DNA of 64,000 nt, taken from contig OZ244070.1 of NCBI GenBank assembly GCA_965215605.1, forward strand, positions 352,001 through 416,000. Direction: 5' to 3'. The stretch comes from an uncultured Candidatus Binatia bacterium. Its GTDB lineage: Bacteria > Desulfobacterota > Binatia > UBA9968 > JAJDTQ01. The notes below the pieces were generated by a model. The model searched no databases. It saw nothing but the letters and a program-made list of their open reading frames with translations, and was not told the origin of the DNA. The position numbers and the translations under genes are program-made. Of this stretch, positions 14,819 to 36,347 are shown in pieces. Each line of letters starts with the position of its first letter. The first letter of the stretch is position 1.

Positions 14819-14865
14819 GGATGGTCGCAGGTTCGGGAACGCCGCCCTCGCGGCGTCCTTCCGTC

Positions 14866-15837
14866 TCAGGAGTCCAGCGTCGATTCCACGAACAGCTCGT
14901 CCACCGCCACGGCCTTGTCCATGAGCCCCTGGTCGTGGGAGTAGCCCATGAAGCGCTCCAGGTTGGCGCGGTTGCGCTTCAGGCCGTAGGGCCAGTAGTC
15001 CTGGCCCAGAGCCTCTCTTTCCTCTTCGTAGAGGTGCCGGGTCCACACCAGGCTCGACCAGTTGGGATCCGCGTAATACTCGAAGCAGGCCGCCTTGGCG
15101 TTCTCGAAGGCGTCCATGACGCTTTGCACGGCGAACGGATACTTCTCCAGCACCTCGTTCTTGAAGGCGACCACGTGCATGATGGGGTAGAAGCCGTTCT
15201 TGCGGTAGTACTTGAGCTCTTCGCCGCGGGGGTCGCGGAACAGGCGGCGGATCTTGTCCGAGCCGTCCACCACCTCGTCCGGCGGATGAGGCATCATCAG
15301 GGCGTCGATCTCGCCCCGCTCCAGCATGGCGCCGATGCTCTCGCCCTTCTCGAGGTAGCGGATGCTCACCCCTTCGGCCGTGATGGGCAGCGCCTCGGGC
15401 CGGTCGATGACCCAGTTGATCTCCCGCCAGGACACGTCGTACTCGCTCTGCAGGTCGCCCTTGGCCAGCACGGAGAGGGTCGTCTGGAACGTGCTCAGAC
15501 CCACGGTCCGGCCGACGAGGTCCTTGGGCGACTCGATGCCCGCGTCCACGTTGACCCACATCTGAGACAGGCTGAAAAGCCGCCGCGGGAACACCGGGAT
15601 GGCCTTGATGGGCATGTCGCGGCTCTGGGAGATGAGATACGAAGACAGCGACAGTTCGCCGATGTCGAACTCGCCCTGGAGCATGCGCTCGTGGCGCCGG
15701 GAACCGTGCCTCAGCGGGTGGGATTGGCCGACCTCCAGCACTTCGAGGTCCAGGCCCTCCGCGGTCACGCTTCCGTCCAGCAGCGGCACGTGCCTGTCGT
15801 AGTGGGACACGGCCATGGTCAGCTTGGGATCCGGCAT
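14866..15837 (-). CDS. 4,5-dihydroxyphthalate decarboxylase-like / PBP2 substrate-binding family protein
   Basis: YDRHVPLLDG, EFDIGELSLSSY, IPVFPRR, YPIMH, WPYGL. Confidence 0.82.
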   Translation of the reverse strand: MPDPKLTMAVSHYDRHVPLLDGSVTAEGLDLEVLEVGQSHPLRHGSRRHERMLQGEFDIGELSLSSYLISQSRDMPIKAIPVFPRRLFSLSQMWVNVDAGIESPKDLVGRTVGLSTFQTTLSVLAKGDLQSEYDVSWREINWVIDRPEALPITAEGVSIRYLEKGESIGAMLERGEIDALMMPHPPDEVVDGSDKIRRLFRDPRGEELKYYRKNGFYPIMHVVAFKNEVLEKYPFAVQSVMDAFENAKAACFEYYADPNWSSLVWTRHLYEEEREALGQDYWPYGLKRNRANLERFMGYSHDQGLMDKAVAVDELFVESTLDS

Positions 15838-15956
15838 GTGATCGTCGCTCCTTCCTCGCAAGGGTTGCACCGTGAATTGAAACGAGACTATACACTACCC
15901 CTATCGGCACAGCCAAACCTGACCGGCGCCCACCGCCGCACAGAGGAGGGACGGAC

Positions 15957-16745
15957 ATGGCCAGAATTCGCTACGTGGCCACCTTGAGCCGCGACCCCGA
16001 CGCACTGGCGGGCTTCTACACTCAATACATGGGGATGAAAGAATTGGGCCGCTCGCCGGAGGGCGACGTTTCCCTCACCGAAGGCCTCTACAACCTCACC
16101 CTGTTCCGCAAGCGGCAATCCCTGGGCGAGTTCCACATGCGCCGCGGACTGCATCACATCGGCCTCCAGGTGGAGGAACTCGGCGAGGTCCGGGCGCGCT
16201 ACCAGAGGTTCAACCCCAGGGGCGTGGTGGTGACCGAACCCGGGGGTCTGCACCACGGCGCCATCCGCATCTTCGATCCCGAGTGCAATCCGGTGACGCT
16301 GTCGGAAGGGAGCTTCGGCGTGGAGGAGGAAGGCGGGTACCCGCGCATCGCCCACGTCGCCTTCAACGCCTTGGACCCCGAGGTGATGCTCAACTTCTAC
16401 GTCCAGGTGCTGGGGCTCCGGGAGGTGGAAAGCAGTTACAAGCGGCGGCGCAGCGGCCTGCTCAACCGTTTCGCGGGCGACGGCTCCACCAACCTGGCCA
16501 TCCACCCGTTCTTCAACTCCACCGTGGGCCACGAACGCCGCTTCGGCGTGAACCACATCGGCTTCCTCGTAGACGATCTGGCCCGTAAGCTCGACGACCT
16601 GGGGAGCGTGGTGGCGGTCAAGGCGCGGCCGCCGGACCGGCCCTACGCCGAGTTCCGCTTCCGGGACCCGGAGGGGAACGCACTGGACCTGTCCCAGAAC
16701 AAGGGATGGGAGGTAGACATCGACAAGTGGGAACGGGCCGCCTGA
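15957..16745 (+). CDS. VOC (glyoxalase/extradiol dioxygenase) family protein, two domains
   Basis: GLHHIGLQV...DPECNPV and GVNHIGFLV...DPEGNALD. Confidence 0.85.
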   Translation: MARIRYVATLSRDPDALAGFYTQYMGMKELGRSPEGDVSLTEGLYNLTLFRKRQSLGEFHMRRGLHHIGLQVEELGEVRARYQRFNPRGVVVTEPGGLHHGAIRIFDPECNPVTLSEGSFGVEEEGGYPRIAHVAFNALDPEVMLNFYVQVLGLREVESSYKRRRSGLLNRFAGDGSTNLAIHPFFNSTVGHERRFGVNHIGFLVDDLARKLDDLGSVVAVKARPPDRPYAEFRFRDPEGNALDLSQNKGWEVDIDKWERAA

Positions 16746-22694: not shown

Positions 22695-22783
22695 CACTTC
22701 ACAGCCGTATTCTCGAGCGATCCGTAGGTCGGATTCCCGGAGCGTAATGTCGGCAACGGCCCGGGGTGCCTTCCACCTGCGCC

Positions 22784-23101
22784 TCATCTGATTGCTTGAA
22801 CCTTCAGTTGTAACCCCTCGTGCTTCTGAAACTGGCCGATGATCTCACACAGAGCACGGGCTCGGGGGTTGCCTCCAGGGCCGAACATACGCATCAGGCT
22901 CTTCGGCGATTTGTCGGCAAGCCCACCGAGTTTCTGAAAGCCAATGATTGCGTTGATGCAGTCGCGCAAGACGGCCTTGCCGGTGTCAATGTCGCCGGCG
23001 AGCAAACATTCAATTCCTTCGGTGAACAGTGCCTCCCGAAAGGCTGGGTCCCGTTCAACACGCTCTCGGATGGCTTCTCGTGAATCTCGTGTCAGCACCA
23101 T
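22784..23101 (-). CDS. Addiction-module antidote / HTH transcriptional regulator (orphan antitoxin)
   Basis: MVLTRDSRE...RDPAFREAL...GKAVLRD.INA.IGF...KSLMRMFGPGGNP pattern; RBS GGGAGG. Confidence 0.78.
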   Translation of the reverse strand: MVLTRDSREAIRERVERDPAFREALFTEGIECLLAGDIDTGKAVLRDCINAIIGFQKLGGLADKSPKSLMRMFGPGGNPRARALCEIIGQFQKHEGLQLKVQAIR

Positions 23102-23168
23102 CGAATCCTCCCGTGATTTGCGCTTCATTGTACTCCCGCCAGAGTTCTTCGTACCTCTTGGACCAAAC

Positions 23169-23378
23169 TCACGAACGCCAGGCTTTCGCCATGACTGCCT
23201 TGTTGAGGAGGTCCAGCCCGTCCATTTTCGCAAGCACCCTGACTTCCTGCCGGCGGGCGTCGGCGGACACGACTTCACGTAACGCGGCCTCGATTATCTC
23301 TTCGACGGAGGGCAGCCCGAGCGTGCGACGCGCCTCCTGAATCAGACTCTCATCAATGTCAACGGTGATCCTGGGCAT
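23169..23378 (-). CDS. VapB-family antitoxin (orphan)
   Basis: MPRITVDIDESLIQEARRTLG...IIEAALREVV RHH-type VapB pattern ending AWR. Confidence 0.75.
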   Translation of the reverse strand: MPRITVDIDESLIQEARRTLGLPSVEEIIEAALREVVSADARRQEVRVLAKMDGLDLLNKAVMAKAWRS

Positions 23379-23668
23379 ACGGCCATTTTATATCATTCGA
23401 ACAATAATTTATCGATCAGGGCGCAAGTGTATCGTCGGATACGGCCCCGACCAATGTCGACACGGAATCCCTGCTTGAAGACCCTAGCTTCGGCGGCCGG
23501 TGGCGTAGTTCCGTTTCTCGCGACTGACCGGCCAAGATTCCACGAGACGAAACTTCGGATCGTCAAGGTTTTGTCATTCTGGGCTTTCCTTGGTAACTGC
23601 TTGTCCATCGTTTTACGTATGAAAACCAGCGGTCACCAAGAACTCACGGCAAGGAAGGATAGCCCGGA

Positions 23669-26600
23669 ATGACGGCACCCGACTCCCTGTTTCAGGACAC
23701 CATCTTCAGGGTCCTCGAAAACGCACCGCGCGGGCTGACCGTCGAACGCATTCGTACACAGTTGGCTGAGGCGGGAGCGACGATCGGCAAGGACGAAGTC
23801 GTACGGGCTCTGGCACACATGAACGAACGCCAACTGGTCCAGTTCGGTGCGGCGCGACGTTGGCATGTCCGCCGGCAAGGGAACAAAACTGCGGAAGATA
23901 CCGTCTCTGGCAGACCAGACGAATACTTGGTTGCAGTCCCTTGCCAAGCCACCGCTGGTGAGGCGGCCGTGGTGGGGCCGGACATGCAAGGCGGGCGCAT
24001 CGACGCCAGCATGGACCTCTTGCAACGCCTCCTGCCTTACTATCAGGATGCGTTACGACACGGTGACGGCGGCCAGCCTCAAGCCTTCGCAAACCAGTAC
24101 GGGGAGAATTTCGTGCTGCTGGAGCCGGACAAGCCCTGGTGGCCGAAGGTGGAGCGGGGTCGCACGTTGGTCGTTCCACTCTCGCGAATGCCGGACGGCG
24201 CGCGAACGCGTTTGGCGAGACAAAACACACGGCACCTCCTGTTGGGTTATCCACTACATGTGGTAGCGCCCCGTAACGGGGAGACCGACGCCTCCGTTCG
24301 TCCTGTTTCGGTCTTCCGTTGCCGTTACGATCAGACAGAGACGCATCTACTGATTCGCGTTCCGGTGACCAGACCCATAATCGTTCGAGACTGGCTGCGA
24401 GATCAAGTGAGGTACAGCGGGTGGAATGCTGCGCGTTTGTTGAGCTGGTTGCTGATCGAAGATGAGACCGCAGATCTGGACACCGAGGATGAAGCCGAGA
24501 GCCCGGAATTCCTGGAGATTCCCACTTTCGCCGCTCGGCTGGAATCCGCTGCCGGCAAGAGGTTGCACCAGAGGCTTCTTCCAGACGCAGTGGCCGGCCG
24601 CGTGCCTCGTGGTGGCGTGACCGGGTTCTATAACGGTCTGGCCTTATTCCCGGAGGCCATCGGGAACTACGTCCGCTCCGCCATCAGGGACTATGACCGG
24701 CTTTGCCAGGAACCCAGGGAACGGCTAGAGGGCAGTGCGATCGGCACGCTGTTCGGGACAGAGCGGCCTGCTTCCCCGGTTCCGGCCATCGTGCATCCGT
24801 TCCCCCTCGGCGAGGCCCAATTGTTGGCAGGGCGGGCCGCCCTATCCCAACCCCTGACCGTGATCACCGGCCCGCCGGGAACAGGCAAGTCGCAGGTCAT
24901 CGCTTCGATCATGCTCAGCGCCGCGGCCGCCGGACGTTCCGTACTGCTGGCGGCACGCCAGCATCGTGCCATCGACGCTGTGAAAGAGCGTATGGAGTCT
25001 CTGACCGAAGATCGGGTTCTGCTCGTTCGAGCCAACGAATCCCAAGGATTCGGAAAGTTCACGTTCGCTGACGGTCTGCGTGCCCTGCAGACCCGGGCGG
25101 GTGGCCCGGACGCAACTCAGCGTTTCGCCAGACGTTTAAGCCGTTTGGCGGAAGTTGATTCGCAGCGCTGGAATCTACTGGAGAGATGGCTGAGCCTCAA
25201 GTCTCTGGGGGAAACCGGCGCCCATCTGTTGGCAGACCTGGAACGGCTGGGAGCCGAACGGGCGAAGCTATCGGAGGCGGTGGGACCTACGCCCAACAAG
25301 TCCCGTTTTTTCGTCGGGCTTCTCCACACGCTGGCCCGCTTTCTCCGCTTTCCGGTCGGTAGGGATATTCCGCTCGGTGCCGAATTTCGTCAAGCGCGTT
25401 TCGACCGTGAGGTGATCCGGTTAGAGGCTACTCTGGGCGAGTTGGAAGATCGGATCCAAACGCTTCGGAAGGAGTTGGAGGGCCAGGCCGAGAACCCGGT
25501 TACTATAGGGGAGCAAGTTCAGACACTCAGCAGCGAAATCATGGAGCCGCTCCTCGACCACCTCGACGCCGTGTCTCAGGATGACAGGCAGGTGCTAGCG
25601 GCTATTGCCGGCGATGCCGCCATCATGGGACAGAGAGATATCGACAGCGATGCGTACCGGCTGATTTTGAAGTACATGCCGCTCTGGGCAGTGACGACCC
25701 TCGCTGCCGGCAGCCGGATACCGCTGGAGGCGGGCCTATTCGACTATGTCGTGTTCGACGAAGCCGGCGTGACGGACATCGCATCCGCCCTCCCTCTCCT
25801 GTTCAGGGCCAAATCGGCAGTCATCGTGGGCGATCCCATGCAGCTTGGCATGATCAGCAACCTCGACCCACGTGAGGAGCGCCTGATGCTGAGCCGGCAT
25901 GAGCTCTTGGGGCCCGGCATCGGGCGTTTCGCCCAAGGACAGACCGACCTCTTCCAGCTTGCGGCGTCAGCCATCCAAGGCGCACCATTTTTGTTGAATG
26001 AACACTACCGCTGTCATCCGGATATCGCCGCATACTTCAACGAGGCCTTCTATGGCCGCCGTTTGACCGTCCTGACGGAGGCGGACAGACTGCGCGTTCC
26101 CAAGGGCTTCAAGCCGGGCCTTCACTGGACCGACGTACAGGGCTCAGTCTCCACGGGCCGTGACATTGGGATGGGAGGCTCCGCGTATTCCGACGCGGAG
26201 GCGAAAGCCGTGGTGGATATGCTGAAGGCGTTGGAGGCGCTAGGTTTTGAAGGAACCGTGGGCGTCGTTACCTTCTTTGCGCCGCAGGCCAGGCACATCA
26301 ATGAACGCGCAAGCCGCGAGATCGGCGCCGACAAGCTCAATCGTCTGAACGTCAAGATATTCACTGCCAACAAGTTCCAGGGCGATGAACGCGACGTAAT
26401 GCTGTTGTCGCTCTGCCTGGCTCCAAACATGCCGGACGGCGCGCGGAACTTCCTGATGAGAGAGAAGCGCCTGCTAAACGTCGCGGTCAGCCGGGCGCGC
26501 GCGGTCTGCCACGTCTTCGGTAACAGGGGGTTCGCCGCATCCTGTGGCATTCCACACATTGAGACCCTGGTCCGCCGAGTGAATGAAGCCGCCGTGCCGC

Positions 26601-26944
26601 CCGACGCCAAGTTCGACGATCGCTTCGACAGCCCTTGGGAAAAGCGACTTTACGAAGCGCTGATCGAGCGTGGGGTCGACCCGATACCGCAGCATCCGGT
26701 TGCGGGGCGCTTCCTGGACTTGGCGGTAGTAGACGACACACGCTGGCCGCCTGTGCGCCTGGACATCGAAGTGGACGGTGTCACTTACCACACAGATGAC
26801 GACGGCAACCGCCTCCAGACGGATCTGTGGCGTGACCGTCAATTGCGGGGGCTGGGTTGGAAGGTCCTACGTTTCTGGGTCTACGAGTTGAGGGACGACA
26901 TGGAGGGGTGTCTTGAGCGAGTGGAACAAGCCATCAGAGACTGA
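23669..26944 (+). CDS. SF1 (UPF1/DNA2-like) helicase with N-terminal wHTH-like region and C-terminal DUF559/Vsr-like nuclease (CnuH-like)
   Basis: GPPGTGKS, FDEAG, VGDPMQL, LNEHYRC, KFQGDERD, LNVAVSRAR; C-terminal DSPWE...IEVDG..YH...RDRQLRGLGWKVLRFW. Confidence 0.9.
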   Translation: MTAPDSLFQDTIFRVLENAPRGLTVERIRTQLAEAGATIGKDEVVRALAHMNERQLVQFGAARRWHVRRQGNKTAEDTVSGRPDEYLVAVPCQATAGEAAVVGPDMQGGRIDASMDLLQRLLPYYQDALRHGDGGQPQAFANQYGENFVLLEPDKPWWPKVERGRTLVVPLSRMPDGARTRLARQNTRHLLLGYPLHVVAPRNGETDASVRPVSVFRCRYDQTETHLLIRVPVTRPIIVRDWLRDQVRYSGWNAARLLSWLLIEDETADLDTEDEAESPEFLEIPTFAARLESAAGKRLHQRLLPDAVAGRVPRGGVTGFYNGLALFPEAIGNYVRSAIRDYDRLCQEPRERLEGSAIGTLFGTERPASPVPAIVHPFPLGEAQLLAGRAALSQPLTVITGPPGTGKSQVIASIMLSAAAAGRSVLLAARQHRAIDAVKERMESLTEDRVLLVRANESQGFGKFTFADGLRALQTRAGGPDATQRFARRLSRLAEVDSQRWNLLERWLSLKSLGETGAHLLADLERLGAERAKLSEAVGPTPNKSRFFVGLLHTLARFLRFPVGRDIPLGAEFRQARFDREVIRLEATLGELEDRIQTLRKELEGQAENPVTIGEQVQTLSSEIMEPLLDHLDAVSQDDRQVLAAIAGDAAIMGQRDIDSDAYRLILKYMPLWAVTTLAAGSRIPLEAGLFDYVVFDEAGVTDIASALPLLFRAKSAVIVGDPMQLGMISNLDPREERLMLSRHELLGPGIGRFAQGQTDLFQLAASAIQGAPFLLNEHYRCHPDIAAYFNEAFYGRRLTVLTEADRLRVPKGFKPGLHWTDVQGSVSTGRDIGMGGSAYSDAEAKAVVDMLKALEALGFEGTVGVVTFFAPQARHINERASREIGADKLNRLNVKIFTANKFQGDERDVMLLSLCLAPNMPDGARNFLMREKRLLNVAVSRARAVCHVFGNRGFAASCGIPHIETLVRRVNEAAVPPDAKFDDRFDSPWEKRLYEALIERGVDPIPQHPVAGRFLDLAVVDDTRWPPVRLDIEVDGVTYHTDDDGNRLQTDLWRDRQLRGLGWKVLRFWVYELRDDMEGCLERVEQAIRD

Positions 26945-28628
26945 TCGAGAGTCTTCCGAACTGCCCAGCGGATCGTCACGCCTGCGCAGCGAGTCACCTG
27001 AACCACCCCAAACGACGTCCGCGCCGGTCGGCTCGGCCCGCCAGCAGGCGAAGACCCGTCCGCGCCTGCTGCCGCTGGGGCTCGTCACGTTGATCGGTTT
27101 GGGCGCCGTGGTGTGGCTTGCGTTCGCCGTAGTGGAAAGCGTCATCAGCAGAACCGCAAAGAGGGCTGAGATCGAGGCGCTTTCCGCGCGACTCGGACCA
27201 TTGCGGGCTGAAGTGAGCAGGACCGAAGTCGCAAGGGACGAACTCCGCGCCGACCGCGACGTATTGCAACGGGAGGTGGACGGCCTGAGCGCTCGCCAGC
27301 AAGCGCTGGCTGGAGGTCTTGCAGACGCCCACGCGGTCATCGAACGGGGAGAACTGGCCCAACGTCGACAAGCCGAGTTGGACCGCGCCCTCACTGAAGA
27401 TCGGCGCAAGTTGGAAGAGCTGGAAAGGCGCCGCAATCAACTCGCCACCGAGGTCGCCTCCGTAGGGGAACGCAGAGACGACCTGAATACTGCCTTCAAC
27501 GCCGAAGCGGATCGTCTGAAGGTCATGCGCGGTGACCTCCAAACCCTTCGCGCCCAGCGACAGCGGACAGCGGACGAACGCCGCGCCGACCGCGATGCAT
27601 TGCAACGGGAGATGGACGGCCTGAGCGCTCGCCAGCAAGCGCTGGCTGGAGATCTTGCGGAGGCGCACGCGGTCATCGAACGGGCAGAGCTGGCCGAACG
27701 TCGACAGGCCGAGATGGACCGCGCCCTCACTGAGGATCGGCGCAAATTGGAAGAGCTGGAAAGGCGCCGCAATCAACTCGCCACCGAGGTCGCCTCCGTA
27801 GGGGAACGCAGGGACGACCTGAATATTGCCATCAACACCGAAACCGATCATCTCAAGGTCCTACGTAGCGACGTCCAGACCCTTCGCGCTGAGCGGCAAC
27901 GAGCCGAACAGGAGCGGGAGAAGGCCGAGAGTGAATTAGCGCGTGTGCGCACAGCTCTTCGCCATATCGAGGCCAAACGCGAAGCGGCACGTGTCCAGGA
28001 GCGAATGCTGGCGGGTCGCGTCCGCGAACTTGCGGCCGAGCAGTCGGGCCTCGAACCCGTGCAGAAACAGATTGCCGAGACGAAGCAGACACTCGCGAAC
28101 GTCCGCCAGGAGTTGGATGCGGTAAGCCTTCAGCTCGCGGAAACGCGCGCGGACGCGGCCCAGACTCGAACGTTGGCCGACCAGCTCCCCCTTCTGAAGG
28201 AGGAAACACAAGCCCTGGAAGCGCGCAGAAAGGAAGCCGTCCGTGACATCGCCGATCTGGAGGGGAAGCGGGCCGAGAGAATCCGCGTCGCTGGGGAGAT
28301 CAGTGTTGCACAGGGCAGGCGGAATGGGTTGTTGAAGGACGAAGCGGAACTCCGCGCACGGATCGACACTCTCGAAATGCGGCGAGACTCTCTCGGTGGG
28401 ACGATTGCGGAACTGGAGAAGGAACGGGTCGGACTTGTTGGTCAGATCAAGAGACTTCACGAAGACCGCAGGCTCGCGGACAACGCGCGTATGGACGCTC
28501 AGAGTGACTTGGCGAAGCTCCAGGATCAAAACGAGAAGGAACAGCAGCGCCTGACCGCCGTAAGGCGCGAACTCGGTACGGCCGGCCAACGGTTGCAGGC
28601 GATCCAACCTGACCTGGAAGCAGACTGA
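26913..28628 (+). CDS. Membrane-anchored long coiled-coil protein (CnuA-like)
   Basis: Hydrophobic LLPLGLVTLIGLGAVVWLAFAVV followed by about 490 aa of heptad-rich sequence; start codon uncertain. Confidence 0.78.
   Translation: MSEWNKPSETDRESSELPSGSSRLRSESPEPPQTTSAPVGSARQQAKTRPRLLPLGLVTLIGLGAVVWLAFAVVESVISRTAKRAEIEALSARLGPLRAEVSRTEVARDELRADRDVLQREVDGLSARQQALAGGLADAHAVIERGELAQRRQAELDRALTEDRRKLEELERRRNQLATEVASVGERRDDLNTAFNAEADRLKVMRGDLQTLRAQRQRTADERRADRDALQREMDGLSARQQALAGDLAEAHAVIERAELAERRQAEMDRALTEDRRKLEELERRRNQLATEVASVGERRDDLNIAINTETDHLKVLRSDVQTLRAERQRAEQEREKAESELARVRTALRHIEAKREAARVQERMLAGRVRELAAEQSGLEPVQKQIAETKQTLANVRQELDAVSLQLAETRADAAQTRTLADQLPLLKEETQALEARRKEAVRDIADLEGKRAERIRVAGEISVAQGRRNGLLKDEAELRARIDTLEMRRDSLGGTIAELEKERVGLVGQIKRLHEDRRLADNARMDAQSDLAKLQDQNEKEQQRLTAVRRELGTAGQRLQAIQPDLEAD
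27245..27916 (+). repeat. Intragenic tandem duplication, 2 x 336 bp (112 aa)
   Basis: CCGCGCCGACCGCGA at 27245 and 27581, CCTTCGCGC at 27545 and 27881; the block RADRD.LQRE.DGLSARQQALAG...ATEVASVGERRDDLN occurs twice. Confidence 0.9.
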
Positions 28629-28670
28629 ATGGCGAGCAGACGCGAACTTGCGTGGTGGGGGGAATAGACG

Positions 28671-30791
28671 ATGAATTGGGTCCTGTATCCTGAAGTGCTC
28701 TCGATCATGATCGCGGTCCTGGCCTTGGTTGGGGTGTTGGGACTCGCATTCATCTATGGAGTACACCATCGTCTGGCTTGGGCGCAGTTGCCGGCCGCGG
28801 CACGCGACGCGGAGTTGGCAACCCGTGTCATGCAGCGCGAGACCGACCTTCTGGACAAGGAGCAAAGGCTGGAGCGGCTCGACGAACAGATTCGCGACCG
28901 TGAAGCCAAGCTGCTGGAGCGCGACCAGTTGGAAGCTGAGGCGGCCTATTGGAAGTCTCAGATAGAGGCTGTGAAAGCCGAGTATGCCGGGCTCGATGCG
29001 TTGCGGACCGAAATCGAGGAAGTGCGAGAGTCGTATCGCCAGGAGATGGAGAGTCTGGCCGATGCGGAAAGACAAACCCGCGAGGCGAAGGGCGAGTGGG
29101 AGGATGCGTGCACACGTGTGGTCAAAGCCGAGCGGTGCCTGGCCGCGCTTGCCGGTAAGGCGGACCGGCTGCGCGAGATGCTCCAGGAGTTGGCGGAGAC
29201 GGAAGCCCGGCTCACGAAAACGAAGGCTAAGCACAAAGACGTGCTCACGGCATTGGAAGTGGGTCAAGACCGTCTCTCCCGCGTCGAGCGCGAGGTGGAA
29301 TCGCTTCACGCACGGCAGCAGAACCTGCTTTCTGAGCTTCGTGGCCACGAAGAGCGACTGGAAACTGTCAAGGCCGAACTGGCCGGTTTGGCTCCCGCGC
29401 GCCAAGAGTTGACCGTGGTCCTAGAGTCGTTGCACTCGGCCGAAGAAGACTTGAAGGACAAACGCGAATCACTCTCGCGTCTTACATCCGACGAAGCGTG
29501 GCTTCACGCTCAGATTGCGCGGTTGCGGGGCGAACTCGACGAAGCTGCCGCAAAGAACTACGAGGGCGACTCGGCTGAATCGCTCGCCGACCTTCTCGTG
29601 CCGCCCTCGTGTCTCGCGCGCACTGATGATGACGGTCACATCGCTGTCTTGCCGGGCGAGCGGCCCGCCGTACGGGAGTTGGACGCCCTACAACGGGTCC
29701 GGCAGCACCTAAAGGAATGCGGGCTTATCTTCGATGAACGCGTGACCAACGCTTTTCACACGAGTCTGAAGACCGCGGTGATTTCGCCACTGACGGTGCT
29801 GGCTGGCGTCAGCGGCACCGGCAAGAGCCAGTTGCCGCGCTTCTATGCGGACGCCATGGGGATGCATTTCCTGAAGATACCGGTCCAGCCCCGTTGGGAC
29901 GGCCCGCAGGATCTCTTCGGCTTCTACAACTACATCGAGAAGCGCTACAAGGCGACGGACCTCGCCCGGGCGCTGGTTCATCTGGACAACTACAACTGGC
30001 CCGATCAGGCAGAGAGGTTCCATGACCGCGTGCTGCTCGTGCTGTTGGATGAAATGAACCTCGCCCGCGTGGAGTACTATTTCTCCGAGTTCCTGAGTCG
30101 CCTTGAAGGACGCCCCCTTGACAGGGAGGCGGGCACCCCCGATATCCGGCGTCCGACGGAGATCGAGATCGACATCAGCCGAAAGGAGCGGTCTCAGGGT
30201 GTCTACGTCGGTCAGAACGTCCTGTTCGTAGGCACGATGAACGAGGACGAATCCACATTGTCCCTGTCGGAAAAGGTGTTGGACCGAGCCAACGTGCTGC
30301 GCTTTCCGAAACCAAAGGAGTTGAGATCGGATCTTCTCACGATGGACGAACGGTTTAAAGCCGCGGGTTATCTTCCCAGGAGACGATGGACGGAGGAGTG
30401 GCCTCGCCGCATCGGGGACATGGACAACGCCGCCCTTGACCGTGCGACCGAGACCGTGTCGGCCATCAACGCCATCATGGACGAAATGGGACGGCCGTTC
30501 GGTCACCGCATGGGACAGGCGATGCTTTACTACGTGGCAAACTACCCGTCTCAACCGGACCGAACCGACGAGCCGGAATTGATAAACAACGCGCTTGCCG
30601 ATCAGATCGAGTTGAGGTTGCTTCCGAGGCTGCGCGGGGTCGGAGTGGACGAGAATCGGAACTCCCTGTACCAACTGGCCGAAAAGGCGAGATCACTGGG
30701 TGACGAGGCGCTTGGGAACGCTATCGACAACGCCGTTCAACGTTCGCACGACACCGGCCTGTTCGCTTGGCGCGGTTTCACCAGGGAGTAG
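28671..30791 (+). CDS. McrB-family AAA+ GTPase with N-terminal TM and coiled coil (CnuB-like)
   Basis: GVSGTGKS Walker A, VQPRWDGPQDLFGFYN, LDEMNLARVEYYFSEFLS, GTMNEDES (NxD), KVLDRAN. Confidence 0.9.
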   Translation: MNWVLYPEVLSIMIAVLALVGVLGLAFIYGVHHRLAWAQLPAAARDAELATRVMQRETDLLDKEQRLERLDEQIRDREAKLLERDQLEAEAAYWKSQIEAVKAEYAGLDALRTEIEEVRESYRQEMESLADAERQTREAKGEWEDACTRVVKAERCLAALAGKADRLREMLQELAETEARLTKTKAKHKDVLTALEVGQDRLSRVEREVESLHARQQNLLSELRGHEERLETVKAELAGLAPARQELTVVLESLHSAEEDLKDKRESLSRLTSDEAWLHAQIARLRGELDEAAAKNYEGDSAESLADLLVPPSCLARTDDDGHIAVLPGERPAVRELDALQRVRQHLKECGLIFDERVTNAFHTSLKTAVISPLTVLAGVSGTGKSQLPRFYADAMGMHFLKIPVQPRWDGPQDLFGFYNYIEKRYKATDLARALVHLDNYNWPDQAERFHDRVLLVLLDEMNLARVEYYFSEFLSRLEGRPLDREAGTPDIRRPTEIEIDISRKERSQGVYVGQNVLFVGTMNEDESTLSLSEKVLDRANVLRFPKPKELRSDLLTMDERFKAAGYLPRRRWTEEWPRRIGDMDNAALDRATETVSAINAIMDEMGRPFGHRMGQAMLYYVANYPSQPDRTDEPELINNALADQIELRLLPRLRGVGVDENRNSLYQLAEKARSLGDEALGNAIDNAVQRSHDTGLFAWRGFTRE

Positions 30792-30794
30792 AGT

Positions 30795-32432
30795 GTGGCG
30801 ACGCCCGATCTGATTCTCCTGCGCGTCCCCTGGGGTCTGATCGGGCCTTCCCGAACGAGACTGGAAATTGCGGAGCCCGTACCCGAATCGGATACAGACG
30901 GTTTGGACCTGGACGGCTGCGTGTCTCCTCTCCTGTTCAGTCGCGACGATAAGCCGGTTCCGCTCAACGAAGACGATAGGGTCCTGGAGAGGTTCGTCGA
31001 ATTCCGGACACGTCTCGACGAACGGCAACGAGCCTGGGACATTCCGGTTCCACTGCACGGAAGCGAACTGCAGAGCCTTCGGTTCCATTCCTGGAAGCGG
31101 TCCAGGAAATTCACTTGGTCCGGAGGCGTCGATCGCCCCCCGACCGCCGGTTCGGGCGACGGGGAAGAGCAGAACCAGCCGGGAGCGCGCCTCCATCGTT
31201 TTCTGCGCACCATCCGCGCGCGTATGCAGGACTTCGAGACGGTTCTATCGGAAGGGCTGGAGCCGTGGGACCACGTCCCCGTCTTGTGGCTCGACCCGCA
31301 TGCCCCGCGTGACCCTACCATGGATGTCCTGGTGCGACATGCGCGTGAACACCGGACTGCCTGGGGTCATCTCGCCGAACACCCGCGACGCCTGCTCAAC
31401 CGCAGGCGCGAGTTGGTCACGCTACCCCGTGTAGAGGAACTGGACGTTCCGTGCATGCAGTGGTTGTCGCGCCAGCCGGGACAGACGCTTGCAGAACGGG
31501 CCGGCGGGCGCCAGCGCATCATGGCGCTCGCGCGCTACGAGAACCGGAACACCCTGGAGAACCGTGTCTTCCTGGACCTCATGGCGCGTAGCGTCGCTGC
31601 GGCACGCGACTACGACGCCATGAACAAGGGACGAGAGGGACGTACACGGCAACGGGGTAGCCTGCGGATCGAGTCCGTTCGGGCATACAGCCGAGAATGC
31701 CGTCGCATTCACCAGGAACTGGACATGCAGGGTGTTCTGCGCCCATCCGAACCGGTCCAACCCAATCATGTTCTGCTCGACGACATGCGCTATCGCAGTG
31801 TCTGGGCAGCGCGGAAGGAGATCATCCGGCGCGAACGGGCGATCGACGACCTTTGGCGTTGGCAACGCAGGGCCTGGACGGAGTTCTGCAAGGCAACGGT
31901 CGCCGTCAGCTTGGTCTGGCTTGACGGAGTCCAGCGTTTCTTCAGTGCACCGATGTTCGTAACAGACGAACACAGACGCGGATGCTTCCTGATTCACGAT
32001 GACCCCATGATCGTTGTTGCCCATTGGAAACGTGGTTGGGTGGCCGAACTCTTGTCCGGGAACTCGGACGTTGTGTCACCGAAGCACCGCGAGCTGTGTG
32101 CTTCCTTCTGGCTGCGCTGTGCCGATCTGGACGGCGGAGACTATGTCTACATCCCGGTATGGACGGTCCACGCCATCGGTGAGCAATGCCGTCTCCGAGA
32201 ACTCGTGAACTCGGCCAACACGGCGTTTCGCATGCTCCGTGATCGAGACCAACTCGCTGGCGGTATCGTGTTGGTCTCGCAAGTCGATGCGTCGGGGGAA
32301 ACAGGAACTGAACGTGCGGAGTTCGTATTCGGCTGCCAGTTCGGCCCCTATGACAAACTGCTTCCCGACGCGGTGCAGCGTTTGGGCGAGGATATACGCG
32401 CCAGGATCGAGGATTCGTTGTGGGCCCGTTGA
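30795..32432 (+). CDS. DUF2357 McrC-like protein (CnuC-like)
   Basis: Follows McrB; LPRVEELD..C..WLSRQPG, NTLENRV, PNHVLL.DMRYRSVW are DUF2357-type motifs. Confidence 0.82.
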   Translation: MATPDLILLRVPWGLIGPSRTRLEIAEPVPESDTDGLDLDGCVSPLLFSRDDKPVPLNEDDRVLERFVEFRTRLDERQRAWDIPVPLHGSELQSLRFHSWKRSRKFTWSGGVDRPPTAGSGDGEEQNQPGARLHRFLRTIRARMQDFETVLSEGLEPWDHVPVLWLDPHAPRDPTMDVLVRHAREHRTAWGHLAEHPRRLLNRRRELVTLPRVEELDVPCMQWLSRQPGQTLAERAGGRQRIMALARYENRNTLENRVFLDLMARSVAAARDYDAMNKGREGRTRQRGSLRIESVRAYSRECRRIHQELDMQGVLRPSEPVQPNHVLLDDMRYRSVWAARKEIIRRERAIDDLWRWQRRAWTEFCKATVAVSLVWLDGVQRFFSAPMFVTDEHRRGCFLIHDDPMIVVAHWKRGWVAELLSGNSDVVSPKHRELCASFWLRCADLDGGDYVYIPVWTVHAIGEQCRLRELVNSANTAFRMLRDRDQLAGGIVLVSQVDASGETGTERAEFVFGCQFGPYDKLLPDAVQRLGEDIRARIEDSLWAR

Positions 32433-34972
32433 TCGGTATCGATTTGAACGGCATCCGCGACACGCTGGCAAGGTGCGATGGAGCGGGCGAAGCCGACCCG
32501 GAATTCATCGACTTGGGGGTTCGCAGCGGCTTCATTCGCCTGCAGTCAGGTGATGACGGGGTGTGGCTCGGGGGCGAGCAGACAGAGTTGGCCCCGCATG
32601 GCCGCGGCCCTGGATGGGGACCCATCGGTGTCGCCGAGAGTCGTATGGACTGTCTGGACATCCTACAAGAGATCCAGGACGGCAACCCCCGTGATGCGAC
32701 ACGCCAGGCATTGGGGTCCGCACTGCCTAGCCTCTTGGGTAAGACCGACTCGGCGGTCTTTGCGGTTCCCGACGCCCCCACGTATGACGAGGCCTTCCGC
32801 GACCGGTTTCTGGGTTTGCTCAAACGAGTGGACGGACTCCGCCCCCTCCTGCTCTGGCGACCTGTCGCCGCGCTTCTGGGCTGGATGGATACGGAACCGC
32901 CGGACGCTCGTCCCGGTTGTCGTGTCGCCATACTTTCACTTATGGCGGACGGGATTCACCTGTCCGCGTTGTCGCTCAAGCGAGAACGCCATGGCGGCGT
33001 CTCGCTGCTGGTGCCGCAACGAAGCGAGTGCGGGCGGATGGTCGGCGCATCGTTCCGAGGCCGAGCCCTACTGGAGGCGGCTCAGGGCCAACTTGCAGGG
33101 GCGTCCGGCGTGGCCGCACCGGAGGTGAAGGCTGCTGCGCTGTCGCCTTGGCGATTCGCAGCAGGGACGAAACCGCAGCCGGAGATTGCGCGACTCTCGG
33201 GCAACCGGGGTTGGCGGAAGCTACCGCCACTCGACTACGGTTGCCCGCGACCGAACGAAATAGACCTGAGCGAAGGCTTCCTGAAAGGGCTTCGCACGGC
33301 TGACATCTTGTTGGTCGAAGGACCGTTGGCGGGCAACGCAGCTTGGCGCGATGGGGTGTTGAAGGCGTTGAACGCACAGCCGCCGGACGTGACCCTCTGC
33401 CGCAACGCTGTCGCGCGTGGTTGCTTGGCGGCGGCGATTCGCCGCCAGCTCGGCCAACCCATCTATTTCGATTTTCTGCCTCAGCTTCAGATCAACGCCT
33501 TGGTGGGGAGAAATCCGGAGTTCGTGGACCTGATCTCGCGCGGGGCGCGTTGTCAGGGCGGCGAATCGTTCCGCGCCAGTGCGCCTGGCGAGTATGCCGT
33601 CGCCAAGGGCGCCGACGAACTCACCCTTTGGCTGTTCAAGGAGGATTTCGTGCGCGGGCGCAAGGCTTGTGTCAGGCTGCCGACCGTGGCGGATCGGTGG
33701 TATCGCCTGTCGGTGTCTGTCGAGCAGATTCCTGGGCAGGGTTTCGCCGAGGTACGCATTTCCTCGCCCGAGTTCAGCAGTCTCCGGCAGTCCCCCATCA
33801 CGCTCGACTGGGAAGCCATGGAGGAAACGGATCAGCCCCGCGAGGAGATCCTGAGGCAGTTAACGGACCAACACCAAGCTCCACTTGCATGGCCCGAAAC
33901 AGCGGTGAATCCAGGGCACCCGGACTTGTGGCAGAAAGGACATCCTCGAGGCGATCTCGTCGCTCAACTCAGAGCCTATCGTGGCGCCCGGCTACTGTGG
34001 CATGGCAGGATCAACTCGAATACCCGGTCGAAGCTAAAGGTTCTGCTCGAACGGTTCAGGCAGCCGTACACGCCATCTTTCTGGGAGCGAAAGGCGGGTC
34101 TTGAGGGCGGCCAACGGGAAACCTTCCGCGCCCTCCGCAGCGACGGACGCCTTCCCAACCCGATTGGCGCTCATCCCATGCCGGCGAGCGCAGCCGAGGA
34201 ACTCGACCGTACGCTTGAGAAACTGGAGAACGACCTTGCCGCGCTAAAAGGCTACTTTGGCCAGCAGATCGAGTCGAGAGTCCTGGGTGAGGTCCTGGGC
34301 TTCGCCAGTTGGTGTTTCTGGCGTTGCCCACCCAGCATTGCCGATGTGTTCCTGGGAACCTACGAAGGCCGTTACTCCTACGACATCAACGCCACGCTCT
34401 TGTGCGAAGGCGTGGCGCGCGTTGTCGAGGGAGAGAACCAGTTGAGACGGTATTTCGCGGGGTTGGAACAGCGACTCAGACGCAGGAAACGGATGATATC
34501 GCCGGACCGCGCGGGCTTGGCCCGGGTTCTGGGCACTTCGGACAAGGCGGCTGTCAACCTCAACCCCTCGCTCGCTGAGCATATCGTGGAAGCGACCGTG
34601 GAGACTTTGCAGGATGAGAACAGGAGGGCGCCCGCAAGATGTTACAAAATACGGTTCAAGACTGCGCTACGGATGCTGGCGGCGCTGCTACGGCACCGCG
34701 AGGCGCGCCCGAGTTTCCTCGACCCGGATCACGACCCGGCCACAGGACGGCTTCTGGCCGCGCTGGACACGGCCGGGGAACGCAACGTTGACCTCGCTGC
34801 CCACATCGAACAGTCGGCCTCCCTTTACCACGGAACGACTCGTGCGTTATCGCGTGGGGCCAAGCGCTTCCACGCCAACGCCGAAATAATCGGCGACCTG
34901 AAAGGCTTCATCCGTCGCGAAGGCGGCAACCCCAACATCATACAACGCATCGACATGCTCGACGACGAGTGA
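32420..34972 (+). CDS. Divergent Hsp70/actin-fold domain protein
   Basis: N-terminal LIGIDLNG, VFAVPD, LLWRPVAALL, NAVARGC match Hsp70 NBD landmarks; overlaps the McrC-like gene. Confidence 0.7.
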   Translation: MGPLIGIDLNGIRDTLARCDGAGEADPEFIDLGVRSGFIRLQSGDDGVWLGGEQTELAPHGRGPGWGPIGVAESRMDCLDILQEIQDGNPRDATRQALGSALPSLLGKTDSAVFAVPDAPTYDEAFRDRFLGLLKRVDGLRPLLLWRPVAALLGWMDTEPPDARPGCRVAILSLMADGIHLSALSLKRERHGGVSLLVPQRSECGRMVGASFRGRALLEAAQGQLAGASGVAAPEVKAAALSPWRFAAGTKPQPEIARLSGNRGWRKLPPLDYGCPRPNEIDLSEGFLKGLRTADILLVEGPLAGNAAWRDGVLKALNAQPPDVTLCRNAVARGCLAAAIRRQLGQPIYFDFLPQLQINALVGRNPEFVDLISRGARCQGGESFRASAPGEYAVAKGADELTLWLFKEDFVRGRKACVRLPTVADRWYRLSVSVEQIPGQGFAEVRISSPEFSSLRQSPITLDWEAMEETDQPREEILRQLTDQHQAPLAWPETAVNPGHPDLWQKGHPRGDLVAQLRAYRGARLLWHGRINSNTRSKLKVLLERFRQPYTPSFWERKAGLEGGQRETFRALRSDGRLPNPIGAHPMPASAAEELDRTLEKLENDLAALKGYFGQQIESRVLGEVLGFASWCFWRCPPSIADVFLGTYEGRYSYDINATLLCEGVARVVEGENQLRRYFAGLEQRLRRRKRMISPDRAGLARVLGTSDKAAVNLNPSLAEHIVEATVETLQDENRRAPARCYKIRFKTALRMLAALLRHREARPSFLDPDHDPATGRLLAALDTAGERNVDLAAHIEQSASLYHGTTRALSRGAKRFHANAEIIGDLKGFIRREGGNPNIIQRIDMLDDE

Positions 34973-35011
34973 CGGTCCTTGATGCCGTTCAGTTCAGCGT
35001 CTCGTACCGAT

Positions 35012-35842
35012 TCACTGTGATGGGCCAGGACTCACGCGACCCGCCGCTGACAACCGTTCCTTGAGGGACTTGAATCCAGACTCGTTCAGGCCGGTCGCTT
35101 CCTCGATCACGTCCCAACTCACGCCGGCGCGCAAAAAGCCTTCGACGGTTTTCAACTGTCCGAGCCGTTCGCCTTCGACCCGGCCCTTTGCTTCGCCCTC
35201 CGCCAGAAGTTGCTGAGCGTATGACATGATCATTCCTCCCTGCTCGTGTCCGTGTCGCCGCAGCGCATCGTCAAATGCCTCGGTGCCTGCGGTGTCCTGA
35301 GTCGCCATGACGTACAACACGAACAGTTCAAAGTAATCGATCTCTCTCTGCAAACGCAACTGGCGCAACAACTGTGCCGCCATGTCCATCGCCAACGCCA
35401 CGTGTCGCCCATACGCGGCCATCATCAACCACTGCGCGACCCGGCCCCTTGCTGCCCCTTCCACCTCGTCGGGTTTGAGATTGGTCTGGTCCAGCAGCAG
35501 ATGGGCGAACCGGGGAACCCACGGCCACTCCCGCGCCACCTCGGGGAACAGGTCCGCGAACTGGGTGGAATGCGTCCATCCGTCGCGGCCTTGGTAGAAG
35601 ACCATGGGCACGATGGGGCGAAACCAGGATGGTCCGGCGCCGTCCTGTACTCCGGTGTCCCAGTGGCTTTGTCTCAGGTTTTCGTCCACGAAGCTCCCGT
35701 CCAGGAGCTTGAGGCTGGTCCAATCCACGCGCTCCTGGAGAGCACCGGGCAACGCCGTGCGCAACAAGCCGACAGCCTCTCCTACGTCAGAGAACACCTT
35801 GCGAAACAGGCCGTCATGAGGGTGATCGACTTCATTTGCCAA
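35012..35842 (-). pseudogene. Rpn family recombination-promoting nuclease/putative transposase with in-frame internal deletion
   Basis: HPHDGLFRKVF, GSFVDENLRQSH joined directly to WD...PIVPMVFYQG; the SDxL...EHQS catalytic segment is missing; C-terminal EGEAKGRVEG. Confidence 0.72.
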
Positions 35843-35897
35843 GGTTTCTTCCTCCCGCTACTGTCCTGTTCGGCAGTGTCGGGAGGAACTTTAGCTT

Positions 35898-36347
35898 TTA
35901 CGTCAGATTCGCCAGGATCTCCTCGTCGGCTGCGGTGAGATCCACGGGCTTGCGGAACGGCTGCGGCCAGTCGATGCCGGTGGGCCAGTACACTTCGACC
36001 GTGTTGCCGTCGGGATCGTGGAAGTAGATGCCGATGGCGTTGCCGTGGCTGGCAACGCGCTCGATGGGGACGCCGCGCTCGAGGAAATCGCGGTGGAACG
36101 CCTTTAACTCGGCCAGGCTTTCGCACCGGAAGGATATCTGCTGGATCAGGTTCCCGCCGTCTTCCCGGCCCGGGCGCAACTGCAGCTCGTGGTGTTCCTG
36201 GTGGCGTTCCTGGGCGGTCATGAAGACCGTGCCGGTGTCGCTTTCGTCGCTGACGGTCAGGCCCAGCACGTCACGGTAGAAGGCCTTGGACCGCTCGATG
36301 TCGTGGACCGTCAGGCCTATATGGCCCAGTGAAGAGACTTTCGGCAT
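35898..36347 (-). CDS. VOC family protein
   Basis: LGHIGLTVHDIERSKAFYRDVLGL, IYFHDPDGNTVEVYW; true start MPKVSS at 36347. Confidence 0.9.
   Translation of the reverse strand: MPKVSSLGHIGLTVHDIERSKAFYRDVLGLTVSDESDTGTVFMTAQERHQEHHELQLRPGREDGGNLIQQISFRCESLAELKAFHRDFLERGVPIERVASHGNAIGIYFHDPDGNTVEVYWPTGIDWPQPFRKPVDLTAADEEILANLT

Follow-up and report, generated by a model that had tools for sequence, protein, structure and literature searches.

The 64,000-nucleotide (nt) stretch of DNA analyzed here (contig OZ244070.1 of assembly GCA_965215605.1, forward-strand positions 352,001 to 416,000, from an uncultured Candidatus Binatia bacterium), referred to below as the window, very probably carries a complete Type III-B CoCoNuT (coiled-coil nuclease tandem), a predicted anti-phage system derived from McrBC and recently acquired by the host genome. 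The class was already described from sequence in 2024, and the subtype of this copy is now assigned. Within Type IV restriction, CoCoNuTs form a large branch that is almost untested, and Type III-B is the least discussed of their subtypes.

Operon structure and class assignment

A compact, co-directional five-gene operon had been proposed for this locus in an earlier reading of the sequence (the original prediction), and five tightly packed open reading frames (ORFs) on the plus strand were found exactly where it had placed them, between 23669 and 34972. Successive ORFs are spaced by -32, +42, +3 and -13 bases, and such overlaps or gaps of 3 to 42 bases between neighbors are the pattern expected of a single operon. 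All five reading frames are open and full length. The impression that the operon is poorer in GC than its flanks was given without computation and held when computed: the GC content is 0.621 (62.1%) compared with 0.663 (66.3%) for the remaining window, and the lowest value among 57 operon-length windows outside the island was 0.651, still above that of the operon. The GC content at third codon positions (GC3) was concordant, with 0.69 to 0.74 in the operon genes and 0.89 to 0.94 in three flanking genes. A promoter search found no sigma-70-like consensus in the 228 bp upstream of the first gene, and 6 terminator-like sites were seen, below the 11.3 expected by chance. A search for expression data gave 13 sequencing runs, none of them listed as RNA.

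In the description by Bell, Sahakyan, Makarova, Wolf and Koonin (eLife 2024, PMC11090510), the Type III-B core consists of CnuHE, CnuA, a CnuB with the NxD signature, CnuC and CnuD. CnuHE is described there as a winged helix-turn-helix (wHTH) domain resembling Sul7s, a stalk-less OB domain, a UPF1-like helicase and a Vsr nuclease. CnuA is a separate protein made of a coiled coil alone, and CnuC combines an Ig-like domain, DUF2357 and an inactivated PD-(D/E)xK domain. CnuD is also separate, with an Hsp70-like nucleotide-binding domain (NBD) and substrate-binding domain (SBD) and HEAT-like repeats, while TerY-P and a HEPN protein are absent. In CoCoNuTs, the CnuB signature reads NxD, with E or D as the usual next residue (PMC11090510). 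The window contains the five core genes in the same order, together with the NxD signature and long N-terminal coiled coil of CnuB, an inactivated CnuC, the helicase-Vsr fusion, and a separate CnuA and CnuD, as given for Type III-B in PMC11090510. Because the gene set of the operon equals the Type III-B set of that paper, the subtype, which the original prediction had considered not assignable by eye, can be assigned as Type III-B. The claim of a complete Type III-like system was likewise upheld, with five full-length proteins whose family-defining motifs are intact.

The other Type III subtypes, as described in PMC11090510, share several of these components. An NxD coiled-coil CnuB, a UPF1-like CnuH with an insertion after Walker A, and an Hsp70-like plus HEAT-like module occur in Types III-A and III-C as well as here. 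In Type III-A, however, the Hsp70 module is fused to CnuC, and a separate double-HEPN CnuE and usually TerY-P are present, whereas the CnuE of Type III-C is a PLD nuclease; the window operon has none of these features. Pfam, PADLOC and NCBIfam gave no match to VWA, PP2C, kinase, HEPN or PLD in the operon or its neighbors.

A CnuB-based scan of one genome per species detected at least 544 CnuB relatives, and the best 80 loci were compared. The order CnuH, CnuB, CnuC, CnuD was colinear on one strand in 62 of these 80 loci; thus both the presence of the Type III-B core set in the window and the conserved order support the claimed match to CoCoNuT architecture. Among the 18 loci without the full order, 11 were cut by contig ends, 6 had no detectable CnuD and 1 had no CnuH. 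The six loci lacking CnuD (L046, L053, L057, L061, L069 and L080) were Thermodesulfobacteriota and Planctomycetota records.

In a tree of the CnuB GTPase domain made for this analysis (79 rows, quick search, midpoint root only), the window grouped with L001, a record labelled Candidatus Binatia, and L006 (support of 95), and then with L002 (support of 100). This group was nested in a mostly alphaproteobacterial clade, among loci with the Type III-B gene order. Type III-B is called "primarily" alphaproteobacterial in PMC11090510, whereas the nearest named relative of the window copy, L001, bears the Binatia label. Elsewhere in the tree, the CnuB of a 4-kb contig (L047) from a metagenome-assembled genome labelled Thermoanaerobaculia had a very short branch and fell within a Roseobacteraceae/Paracoccaceae clade, which suggests a very recent transfer or a mis-binned contig.

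McrB-like and McrC-like proteins

The third protein, CnuB, had been claimed to be a coiled-coil McrB with MNED as a variant of the NxD signature, and the analysis agreed. CnuB matched AAA_5 in Pfam (3.7e-5; 24.2 bits against a cutoff of 22) and PDC-M26A in PADLOC (1.8e-40), and its relatives carry the public name "McrB family protein". Residues ~45 to 300 matched coiled-coil proteins only, namely SMC, Rad50 and JetC models in PADLOC and NCBIfam and myosin rods in the PDB. The Walker A motif (G379-S386), the Walker B motif (D460-E461) and the signature M523-N524-E525-D526-E527 (MNEDE) did not vary in any of the 29 full-length relatives or of the 21 GTPase domains aligned. When the GTPase profile was compared with E. 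coli K-12 McrB by hhalign, a probability of 89.6% and an E value of 1.9e-6 were obtained over 167 columns, which spanned Walker A, Walker B and the signature. In this alignment N524 was opposite the Asn and E527, not D526, was opposite the Asp of the N-T-A-D signature, with a gap a few residues later. A CnuB-profile search of the window's own genome detected a single copy, in this operon.

The predicted DUF2357 McrC-like protein, CnuC, matched DUF2357 below threshold when the window protein was searched against Pfam (E value of 0.0036; 17 bits against 23.3), while all 52 aligned family members matched it at an E value of 0.01 or less, the best at 1e-13. At an E value of 0.001 or less, 902 relatives were detected among cluster representatives. 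The AlphaFold2 (AF2) model, with a pLDDT (predicted local distance difference test) of 92.9 and a predicted template modeling score (pTM) of 0.91, begins with a beta-sandwich (residues 1-110), continues as a helical bundle (124-375) and ends in an alpha/beta domain (379-545). McrC was the top Foldseek match (6hz4_M, E value of 1.9e-5, probability of 1.00), followed by 6ut7_G and 6ut6_G, and VIA-align placed McrC at Z scores of 9.3 and 9.2. The original prediction for CnuC was therefore confirmed through the family matches and the McrC-like model.

The C-terminal domain of CnuC was most similar in VIA-align to the restriction enzymes BpuSI (Z of 7.4), BsoBI (6.7) and BsaWI (6.7), which are also listed for "inactivated PD-DxK" domains in supplementary file 1 of PMC11090510. 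A conserved D...(D/E)xK triad was not found in this domain across 52 sequences. Since the triad is not conserved but E392, R395, G396, W398, W456 and H459 are kept in the same sequences, the nuclease is predicted to be dead while the domain is still under constraint. As judged from its sequence and model, CnuC is homologous to McrC, and its nuclease fold is one from which the catalytic triad has been lost.

The relationship to canonical McrBC (E. coli K-12; 6hz4, 6ut6) is thus one of a common GTPase core (hhalign E value of 1.9e-6) and a common McrC fold. Canonical McrBC has an NxxD signature, an N-terminal DNA-reader domain and an active McrC nuclease, whereas the window proteins have N-E-D-E, a transmembrane (TM) helix plus coiled coil, and a nuclease predicted to be dead. 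The operon also has three genes beyond the canonical pair.

Helicase-nuclease fusion

The first protein, CnuH, showed the predicted fusion of a superfamily 1 (SF1) helicase and a DUF559 nuclease, with Pfam matches to AAA_11 (1.6e-15), AAA_12 (7e-26), MTES_1575 (8.8e-16) and DUF559 (2.9e-6), the last two covering residues 991-1089. The best PDB sequence match was UPF1 (4e-17), and SEN1, NAM7, SMUBP-2 and DNA2 were also matched. Because these are the nearest solved proteins by sequence, the helicase is assigned to the UPF1-like clade. About 290 residues separate Walker A (residues 401-408) from the DEAG motif (697-700), and the large insertion after Walker A described for Type III CnuH in PMC11090510 is therefore present here too. 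Across 62 aligned homologs (the window and 61 related loci), the helicase residues G401-K407, D697, E698, G721, D722, Q725, Q904, G905 and R942 were invariant, as were the nuclease residues E991, D1017, E1034, D1036 and H1041. The Vsr-like domain of CnuH is the sole nuclease of the operon predicted to be catalytically intact.

CnuH residues ~684-1090, which comprise the RecA2 and Vsr/DUF559 domains, also matched models of defense proteins, all far below the full-length cutoffs. In PADLOC these were PDC-S37 (1.2e-46), MkoA (3.1e-42) and Hhe (1e-21), and in NCBIfam ProA (1.7e-47; 161.7 bits against a cutoff of 1500) and Hhe (1.4e-29). Hhe, ProA and the Mokosh protein MkoA have the C-terminal helicase-nuclease module in common with CnuH, but those proteins are stand-alone or otherwise partnered. 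The PADLOC comparison proposed with the original prediction thus returned PDC-M26A for CnuB and these partial matches for CnuH; a literature search found no mention of the PADLOC candidates PDC-M26 and PDC-S37. An Atlas feature search with CnuH residues 1-380 gave a best score of 0.77, at lead level.

Hsp70-like protein

The fifth protein, CnuD, had no match in Pfam, PADLOC or NCBIfam, and each of its 81 relatives was without a name or "hypothetical". The claim that it is Hsp70-like was confirmed by structure alone. The AF2 model (pLDDT of 90.7) matched full-length DnaK in Foldseek (4b9q_A, E value of 1.5e-13), and VIA-align gave Z scores of 23.4 for Ssz1 (residues 1-384), 22.1 for Sse1/Hsp110 (2-465) and 21.3 for BiP. 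The Hsp70 scores of 21 to 23 exceeded those for actin, MreB and ParM (19.7 or less). The tail (residues 507-844) resembled the ARM/HEAT-like IFRD2 with a Z score of 13.1, which for helical repeats may reflect just a common arrangement.

The N-terminal motif G6-x-D8-x-N10-G11-x-x-D14 of CnuD was invariant in the alignment. Comparison with E. coli DnaK by hhalign was weak (probability of 24%), with AVxAVPD and LLWRPVAALLG aligned with DnaK motifs. A nearly invariant Arg was present at the position of the Glu in the DnaK "NEPTAA" motif, and the second phosphate motif was degenerate. Both features agree with the view that CnuD is a poor ATPase, as it is regarded in PMC11090510. Judged on its model, CnuD is a degenerate Hsp70 look-alike.

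Coiled-coil protein CnuA and its length variation

The second protein, CnuA (571 aa), had been described as a coiled-coil protein, and it matched only coiled-coil-type entries in Pfam, PADLOC and NCBIfam. The TTG at 26913, which overlaps the end of cnuH by 32 nt, is the sole start codon upstream of its hydrophobic segment (residues ~53-75). Inside the gene, a 336-bp duplication, also seen as a repeat in the translation, is in frame and adds 112 aa to the coiled coil. A CnuA-position ORF between cnuH and cnuB was present in 70 related loci. In L006, the CnuA gene contains at 9228-9745 an in-frame tandem array of 156 bp in 3.3 copies (95% matches) that is unrelated to the repeat of the window, and no tandem array was found in the CnuA gene of L001. 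Since the two repeats are unrelated, the coiled coils of CnuA seem to change length by recurrent and independent in-frame tandem duplication.

Across the related loci, the length of CnuA after the hydrophobic segment ranged from 347 to 1031 residues, and the distance from the N-terminal hydrophobic segment of CnuB to its Walker A motif ranged from 235 to 611 residues. The lengths of the two coiled coils did not covary (Spearman coefficient of 0.13, P = 0.31, n = 65 loci), and in-register pairing of CnuA with CnuB is therefore unsupported.

Predicted membrane anchors

Among the full-length relatives of CnuB, 28 of 29 had an N-terminal 19-residue segment with a Kyte-Doolittle value of at least 1.86, starting at residues 9 to 16, and no comparable hydrophobic segment was found further on (maximum of 1.35). 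The mean number of Lys and Arg residues flanking this segment was 0.17 on the N-terminal side and 2.24 on the C-terminal side. This difference predicts that the short N terminus of CnuB is outside and that the coiled coil and the GTPase are in the cytoplasm. A TM-like 19-residue segment (Kyte-Doolittle value of at least 1.6) was also found in 69 of 71 CnuA-position ORFs, the exceptions being L077 (0.83) and L079 (1.59). Here the flanking Lys and Arg residues averaged 2.86 on the N-terminal side and 2.35 on the C-terminal side, with more on the N-terminal side in 34 of the 69 ORFs, equal numbers in 21 and fewer in 14, and the topology of CnuA is therefore not callable. Through these N-terminal helices of CnuA and CnuB, the Type III-B machine is probably tethered to the membrane.

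The tail of Zorya ZorA is reportedly a membrane-anchored coiled coil that works with a nuclease, and it is cited here by analogy only. ShdA of the Shield system, cited in PMC11090510, similarly has a single N-terminal anchor followed by a long coiled coil that joins or cooperates with a nuclease; this too is an analogy, with no sequence relationship shown. The main text of PMC11090510 uses the word "transmembrane" six times and never for Type III-B, and the word is absent from the searched parts of its four supplementary files; the figures of the paper and the Type III-B sheet of supplementary file 3 may show such segments. Relative to that published text, the conserved membrane anchoring of CnuA and CnuB is the sole point that goes beyond it.

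The start of CnuB with a TM helix followed by a coiled coil also bears on whether the operon might belong to a neighboring NxD clade such as CoCoPALM and not to CoCoNuT. In CoCoPALM, McrB is fused to an FtsB-like TM and coiled-coil segment and coiled coils occur in both the McrB and the McrC homologs, and the text of PMC11090510 names the combination of TM segment and coiled coil for CoCoPALM alone. Yet the operon contains CnuH and CnuD, which in PMC11090510 define Types II/III and Type III, respectively, the modeled CnuC lacks a long coiled coil, neither a signal-peptidase nor a pilus-assembly gene is located in or beside the operon, and no DivIC or FtsB family match was obtained in Pfam or NCBIfam. 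Membership in such a clade is extremely unlikely.

For Type III-B CoCoNuTs, a role in surveillance from the inner membrane can be suggested, though it is rather doubtful. The anchors might hold the assembly where phage genomes enter or at membrane-bound ribosomes, and CnuA might act as an adjustable spacer or, if it is oriented N-in/C-out, as a periplasmic antenna, which would sense a breach of the envelope. If the anchors are essential, Type III-B would join the short list of membrane-acting immune systems.

Observations weighing against the assignment

Several observations weigh against the assignment of the operon to Type III-B, its descent from McrBC or its role in defense. The link of CnuB to canonical McrB is, as far as sequence goes, only at the profile level: McrB was not reached by PDB searches with the CnuB protein, with the full-length profile, which was swamped by coiled-coil proteins, or with the GTPase profile. 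The CnuB signature may reflect a deletion or a substitution, the hhalign comparison being in itself no proof of a deletion. The CnuC family gave no match to E. coli McrC by hhalign (probability of 4%), and therefore the link between them rests on DUF2357 and on structure. In the N-terminal region of CnuH, where a wHTH domain is described for Type III-B, residues 11-60 gave only sub-threshold winged-helix matches in Pfam (FUR, 0.031; HTH_12, 0.04). In the six related loci without tblastn-detectable CnuD, at least 4.4 kb of sequence follows cnuC, and L065 has no tblastn-detectable CnuH; these loci may represent variant architectures or very divergent partners.

Context gave no additional indication of defense. 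No other recognizable defense system was found in the 64-kb window, and the locus is therefore not a defense island; no integrase or tRNA gene adjoins the operon, and the window contains no tRNA gene. No experiment on Type III-B was found in the literature, so that defense is deduced from homology and context.

Genomic context and acquisition

The operon is flanked by metabolic genes, with a gene of the xanthine dehydrogenase family on the left and a glyoxalase-domain gene, an M24 peptidase gene and others on the right. When CnuD was searched in 24 genomes of the same genus and in 16 of the same order but of different families, matches were obtained in 6 of the 24 and in none of the 16. Three of the six (G005, G011 and G012) encoded full-length CnuD, with the operon at other genomic positions, G015 contained a copy of 93 to 95% identity split over contigs, and G021 and G014 retained C-terminal fragments of CnuD only. 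By DNA comparison, another congener carries a 96% identical copy of the operon.

DNA comparison with 27 congeners indicated that the flanks are conserved up to ~22748 and from ~35900, and the junctions of the island between them were mapped in four congeners. In G024, window positions 23441-34968 are missing as one block between conserved neighbors, and in G014 about 1 kb separates the flanks. In G021 (locus L087), only positions 34374-35663 are kept at the same site, joined about 100 bp from 22937, and this remnant comprises the last ~200 codons of cnuD and an adjacent Rpn-like gene. Because of this junction, G021 is interpreted as a deletion remnant of an arrangement like that of the window. 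The block boundaries showed neither direct nor inverted repeats of more than 9 bases. The operon and the 228 bp upstream of it (~11.5 kb) thus behave as a unit that can be transferred and lost, with no obvious mobility gene. The low GC and GC3 contents, the minority of carriers among congeners, the differing sites, the empty site and the G021 remnant together indicate that the operon was acquired horizontally.

The loss in G021 of all but the end of cnuD, the apparent internal deletion of the adjacent Rpn-like gene relative to its L001 homolog and the recent duplication in cnuA could also be taken to mean that the locus is a passenger, decaying or inactive, without a present function. This is very unlikely, since the five frames are open and full length, the cnuA duplication is in frame, none of the catalytic and signature residues invariant in the families has been lost, and another congener has a copy of 96% identity.

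A housekeeping role was also considered, in which the operon would encode a membrane-associated machine for RNA or protein quality control and not for immunity. The occurrence of a UPF1-like helicase together with membrane anchors fits such a role, as do the best fold matches of CnuD, which are ribosome-associated or noncanonical Hsp70s. This role is nevertheless very unlikely, given the distribution of CnuD (matched in 6 of 24 congeners but in none of the 16 genomes outside the family), the varying site and foreign composition of the operon, and the fast evolution of length by tandem duplication. Patchy carriage, differing sites, foreign composition and fast length change are characteristic of accessory conflict systems, not of housekeeping genes.

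Possible mechanism and target

By analogy with the solved structures of McrBC, and following the 2024 analysis, CnuB would form a GTP-driven hexameric ring, which CnuC would plug and stimulate. With its nuclease dead, CnuC would serve as an adaptor or nucleic acid binder, and CnuD, as a poor ATPase, would sense or target a nascent chain, a phage protein or RNA. The coiled-coil scaffold would be kept at the inner membrane by its anchors, and the activated assembly would license CnuH to unwind and cut the nucleic acid of the invader. The sequence is compatible with either DNA or RNA as the substrate and with either direct restriction or abortive infection as the outcome.

The original prediction noted that helicase- and Hsp70-containing CoCoNuTs are predicted to target RNA. 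PMC11090510 goes no further than to say that RNA targeting by Type III-B is "perhaps inferred" from its likeness to Type III-A; the CnuD-type Hsp70 and the descent from HEPN-bearing CoCoNuTs are arguments for RNA in the same paper. The ribosome-associated Ssz1 was the best structural match of CnuD, but the likeness is one of fold alone. A seven-gene Type II-like CoCoNuT locus protected Pseudomonas aeruginosa against two phages with RNA genomes, PP7 and LeviOr01, as well as the DNA phage MPK7 (bioRxiv 10.64898/2026.04.06.716636). The prediction of an RNA target was weakened, on the other hand, by the nature of the sole intact nuclease, which is Vsr-like and makes DNA at least as likely a target.

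In the alternative, the same system targets DNA (incoming or replicating phage DNA, single-stranded DNA [ssDNA] intermediates or plasmids), which CnuH would unwind and then nick or cut in the manner of a Vsr-type endonuclease and of classic Type IV restriction. The sole intact nuclease is a PD-(D/E)xK enzyme of the Vsr/DUF559 type, a fold that is generally DNA specific according to PMC11090510, where the wHTH domain of Type III-B CnuH is also likened to the ssDNA-binding Sul7s. The UPF1-like helicases include enzymes acting on DNA, such as DNA2 and SMUBP-2, both matched by CnuH, and searches of the operon with Pfam, PADLOC and NCBIfam gave neither HEPN nor any other dedicated RNase. Weighed against the RNA phage protection by the Type II relative and the arguments drawn from CnuD, this mode of action has a little less than an even chance.

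The claim that such systems are largely uncharacterized experimentally stands for Type III-B, for which no experiment was found in the literature, but not for CoCoNuTs as a whole, now that the Type II-like locus has been tested in phage assays. A 2025 preprint relabels Druantia I and II as "Type IV CoCoNuT"; it is not about Type III-B. As an intact 11.3-kb single operon without accessory genes, the window copy is a convenient unit to clone. It makes testable the action of a dead McrC through the Vsr nuclease of CnuH, the choice between DNA and RNA as the target and the need for the anchors.

Neighboring genes and feature coordinates

The features of the operon and the island are given in Table 1.

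Table 1. Coordinates of the CoCoNuT genes and associated features in the window
Feature	Position	Strand	Description
cnuH (CnuHE)	23669-26944	+	1091 aa; Pfam AAA_11, AAA_12, MTES_1575, DUF559
cnuH layout			Probable N-terminal winged helix, unassigned region, UPF1-like SF1 helicase with ~250-aa helical insertion, Vsr/DUF559-like nuclease
cnuA	26913-28628	+	571 aa from TTG; ~52-aa N-terminal tail, TM helix ~53-75, ~495-aa coiled coil
In-frame tandem duplication inside cnuA	27236-27889	+	336 bp, 1.9 copies, 90% matches; Tandem Repeats Finder
cnuB	28671-30791	+	706 aa; TM helix ~10-28, coiled coil ~45-300, McrB-like AAA+ GTPase
cnuC	30795-32432	+	545 aa; Ig-like domain 1-110, DUF2357 bundle ~124-375, predicted inactivated PD-(D/E)xK domain ~379-545
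cnuD	32420-34972	+	850 aa; Hsp70-like NBD 1-~350, beta SBD-like domain ~356-470, helical-repeat tail 474-850
Upstream region (presumed promoter or leader)	23441-23668	+	228 bp; present or absent together with the operon
Variable island	22749-35899	.	Between flanks conserved in 27 congeners; two-gene cassette, operon and Rpn-like gene

An Rpn/YhgA-like (Transposase_31) gene at 35012-35842 on the minus strand is convergent with cnuD, and its Pfam match is in two pieces. Compared with its 57% identical homolog in L001, it has 266 residues over 313 alignment columns, which suggests that the gene is internally deleted relative to that homolog. This gene was considered as a sixth component of the system and rejected; of 84 loci, it follows cnuD only in the window locus and in L001/L083, which gave identical alignments. 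Relatives of the Rpn-like gene occur at several places in the genomes of congeners.

Two further, generic PADLOC matches in the window are most likely not defense genes. The gene at 53283-55181 on the plus strand (mad3/mad8-type ATPase, 3e-31) most likely encodes an ordinary ABC-type ATPase, and that at 14132-15958 on the minus strand (mad2-type methyltransferase domain, 1.8e-13) an ordinary methyltransferase.

On the left side of the island, an ORF at 23169-23378 on the minus strand encodes a 69-aa VapB-type antitoxin (Pfam PF09957, 1.9e-8). The ORF downstream of it (22784-23131, minus strand) had no family match and no PIN domain. In three congeners (G014, G022 and G024), the VapB cassette is located at the same site but in the opposite orientation relative to the flanks.

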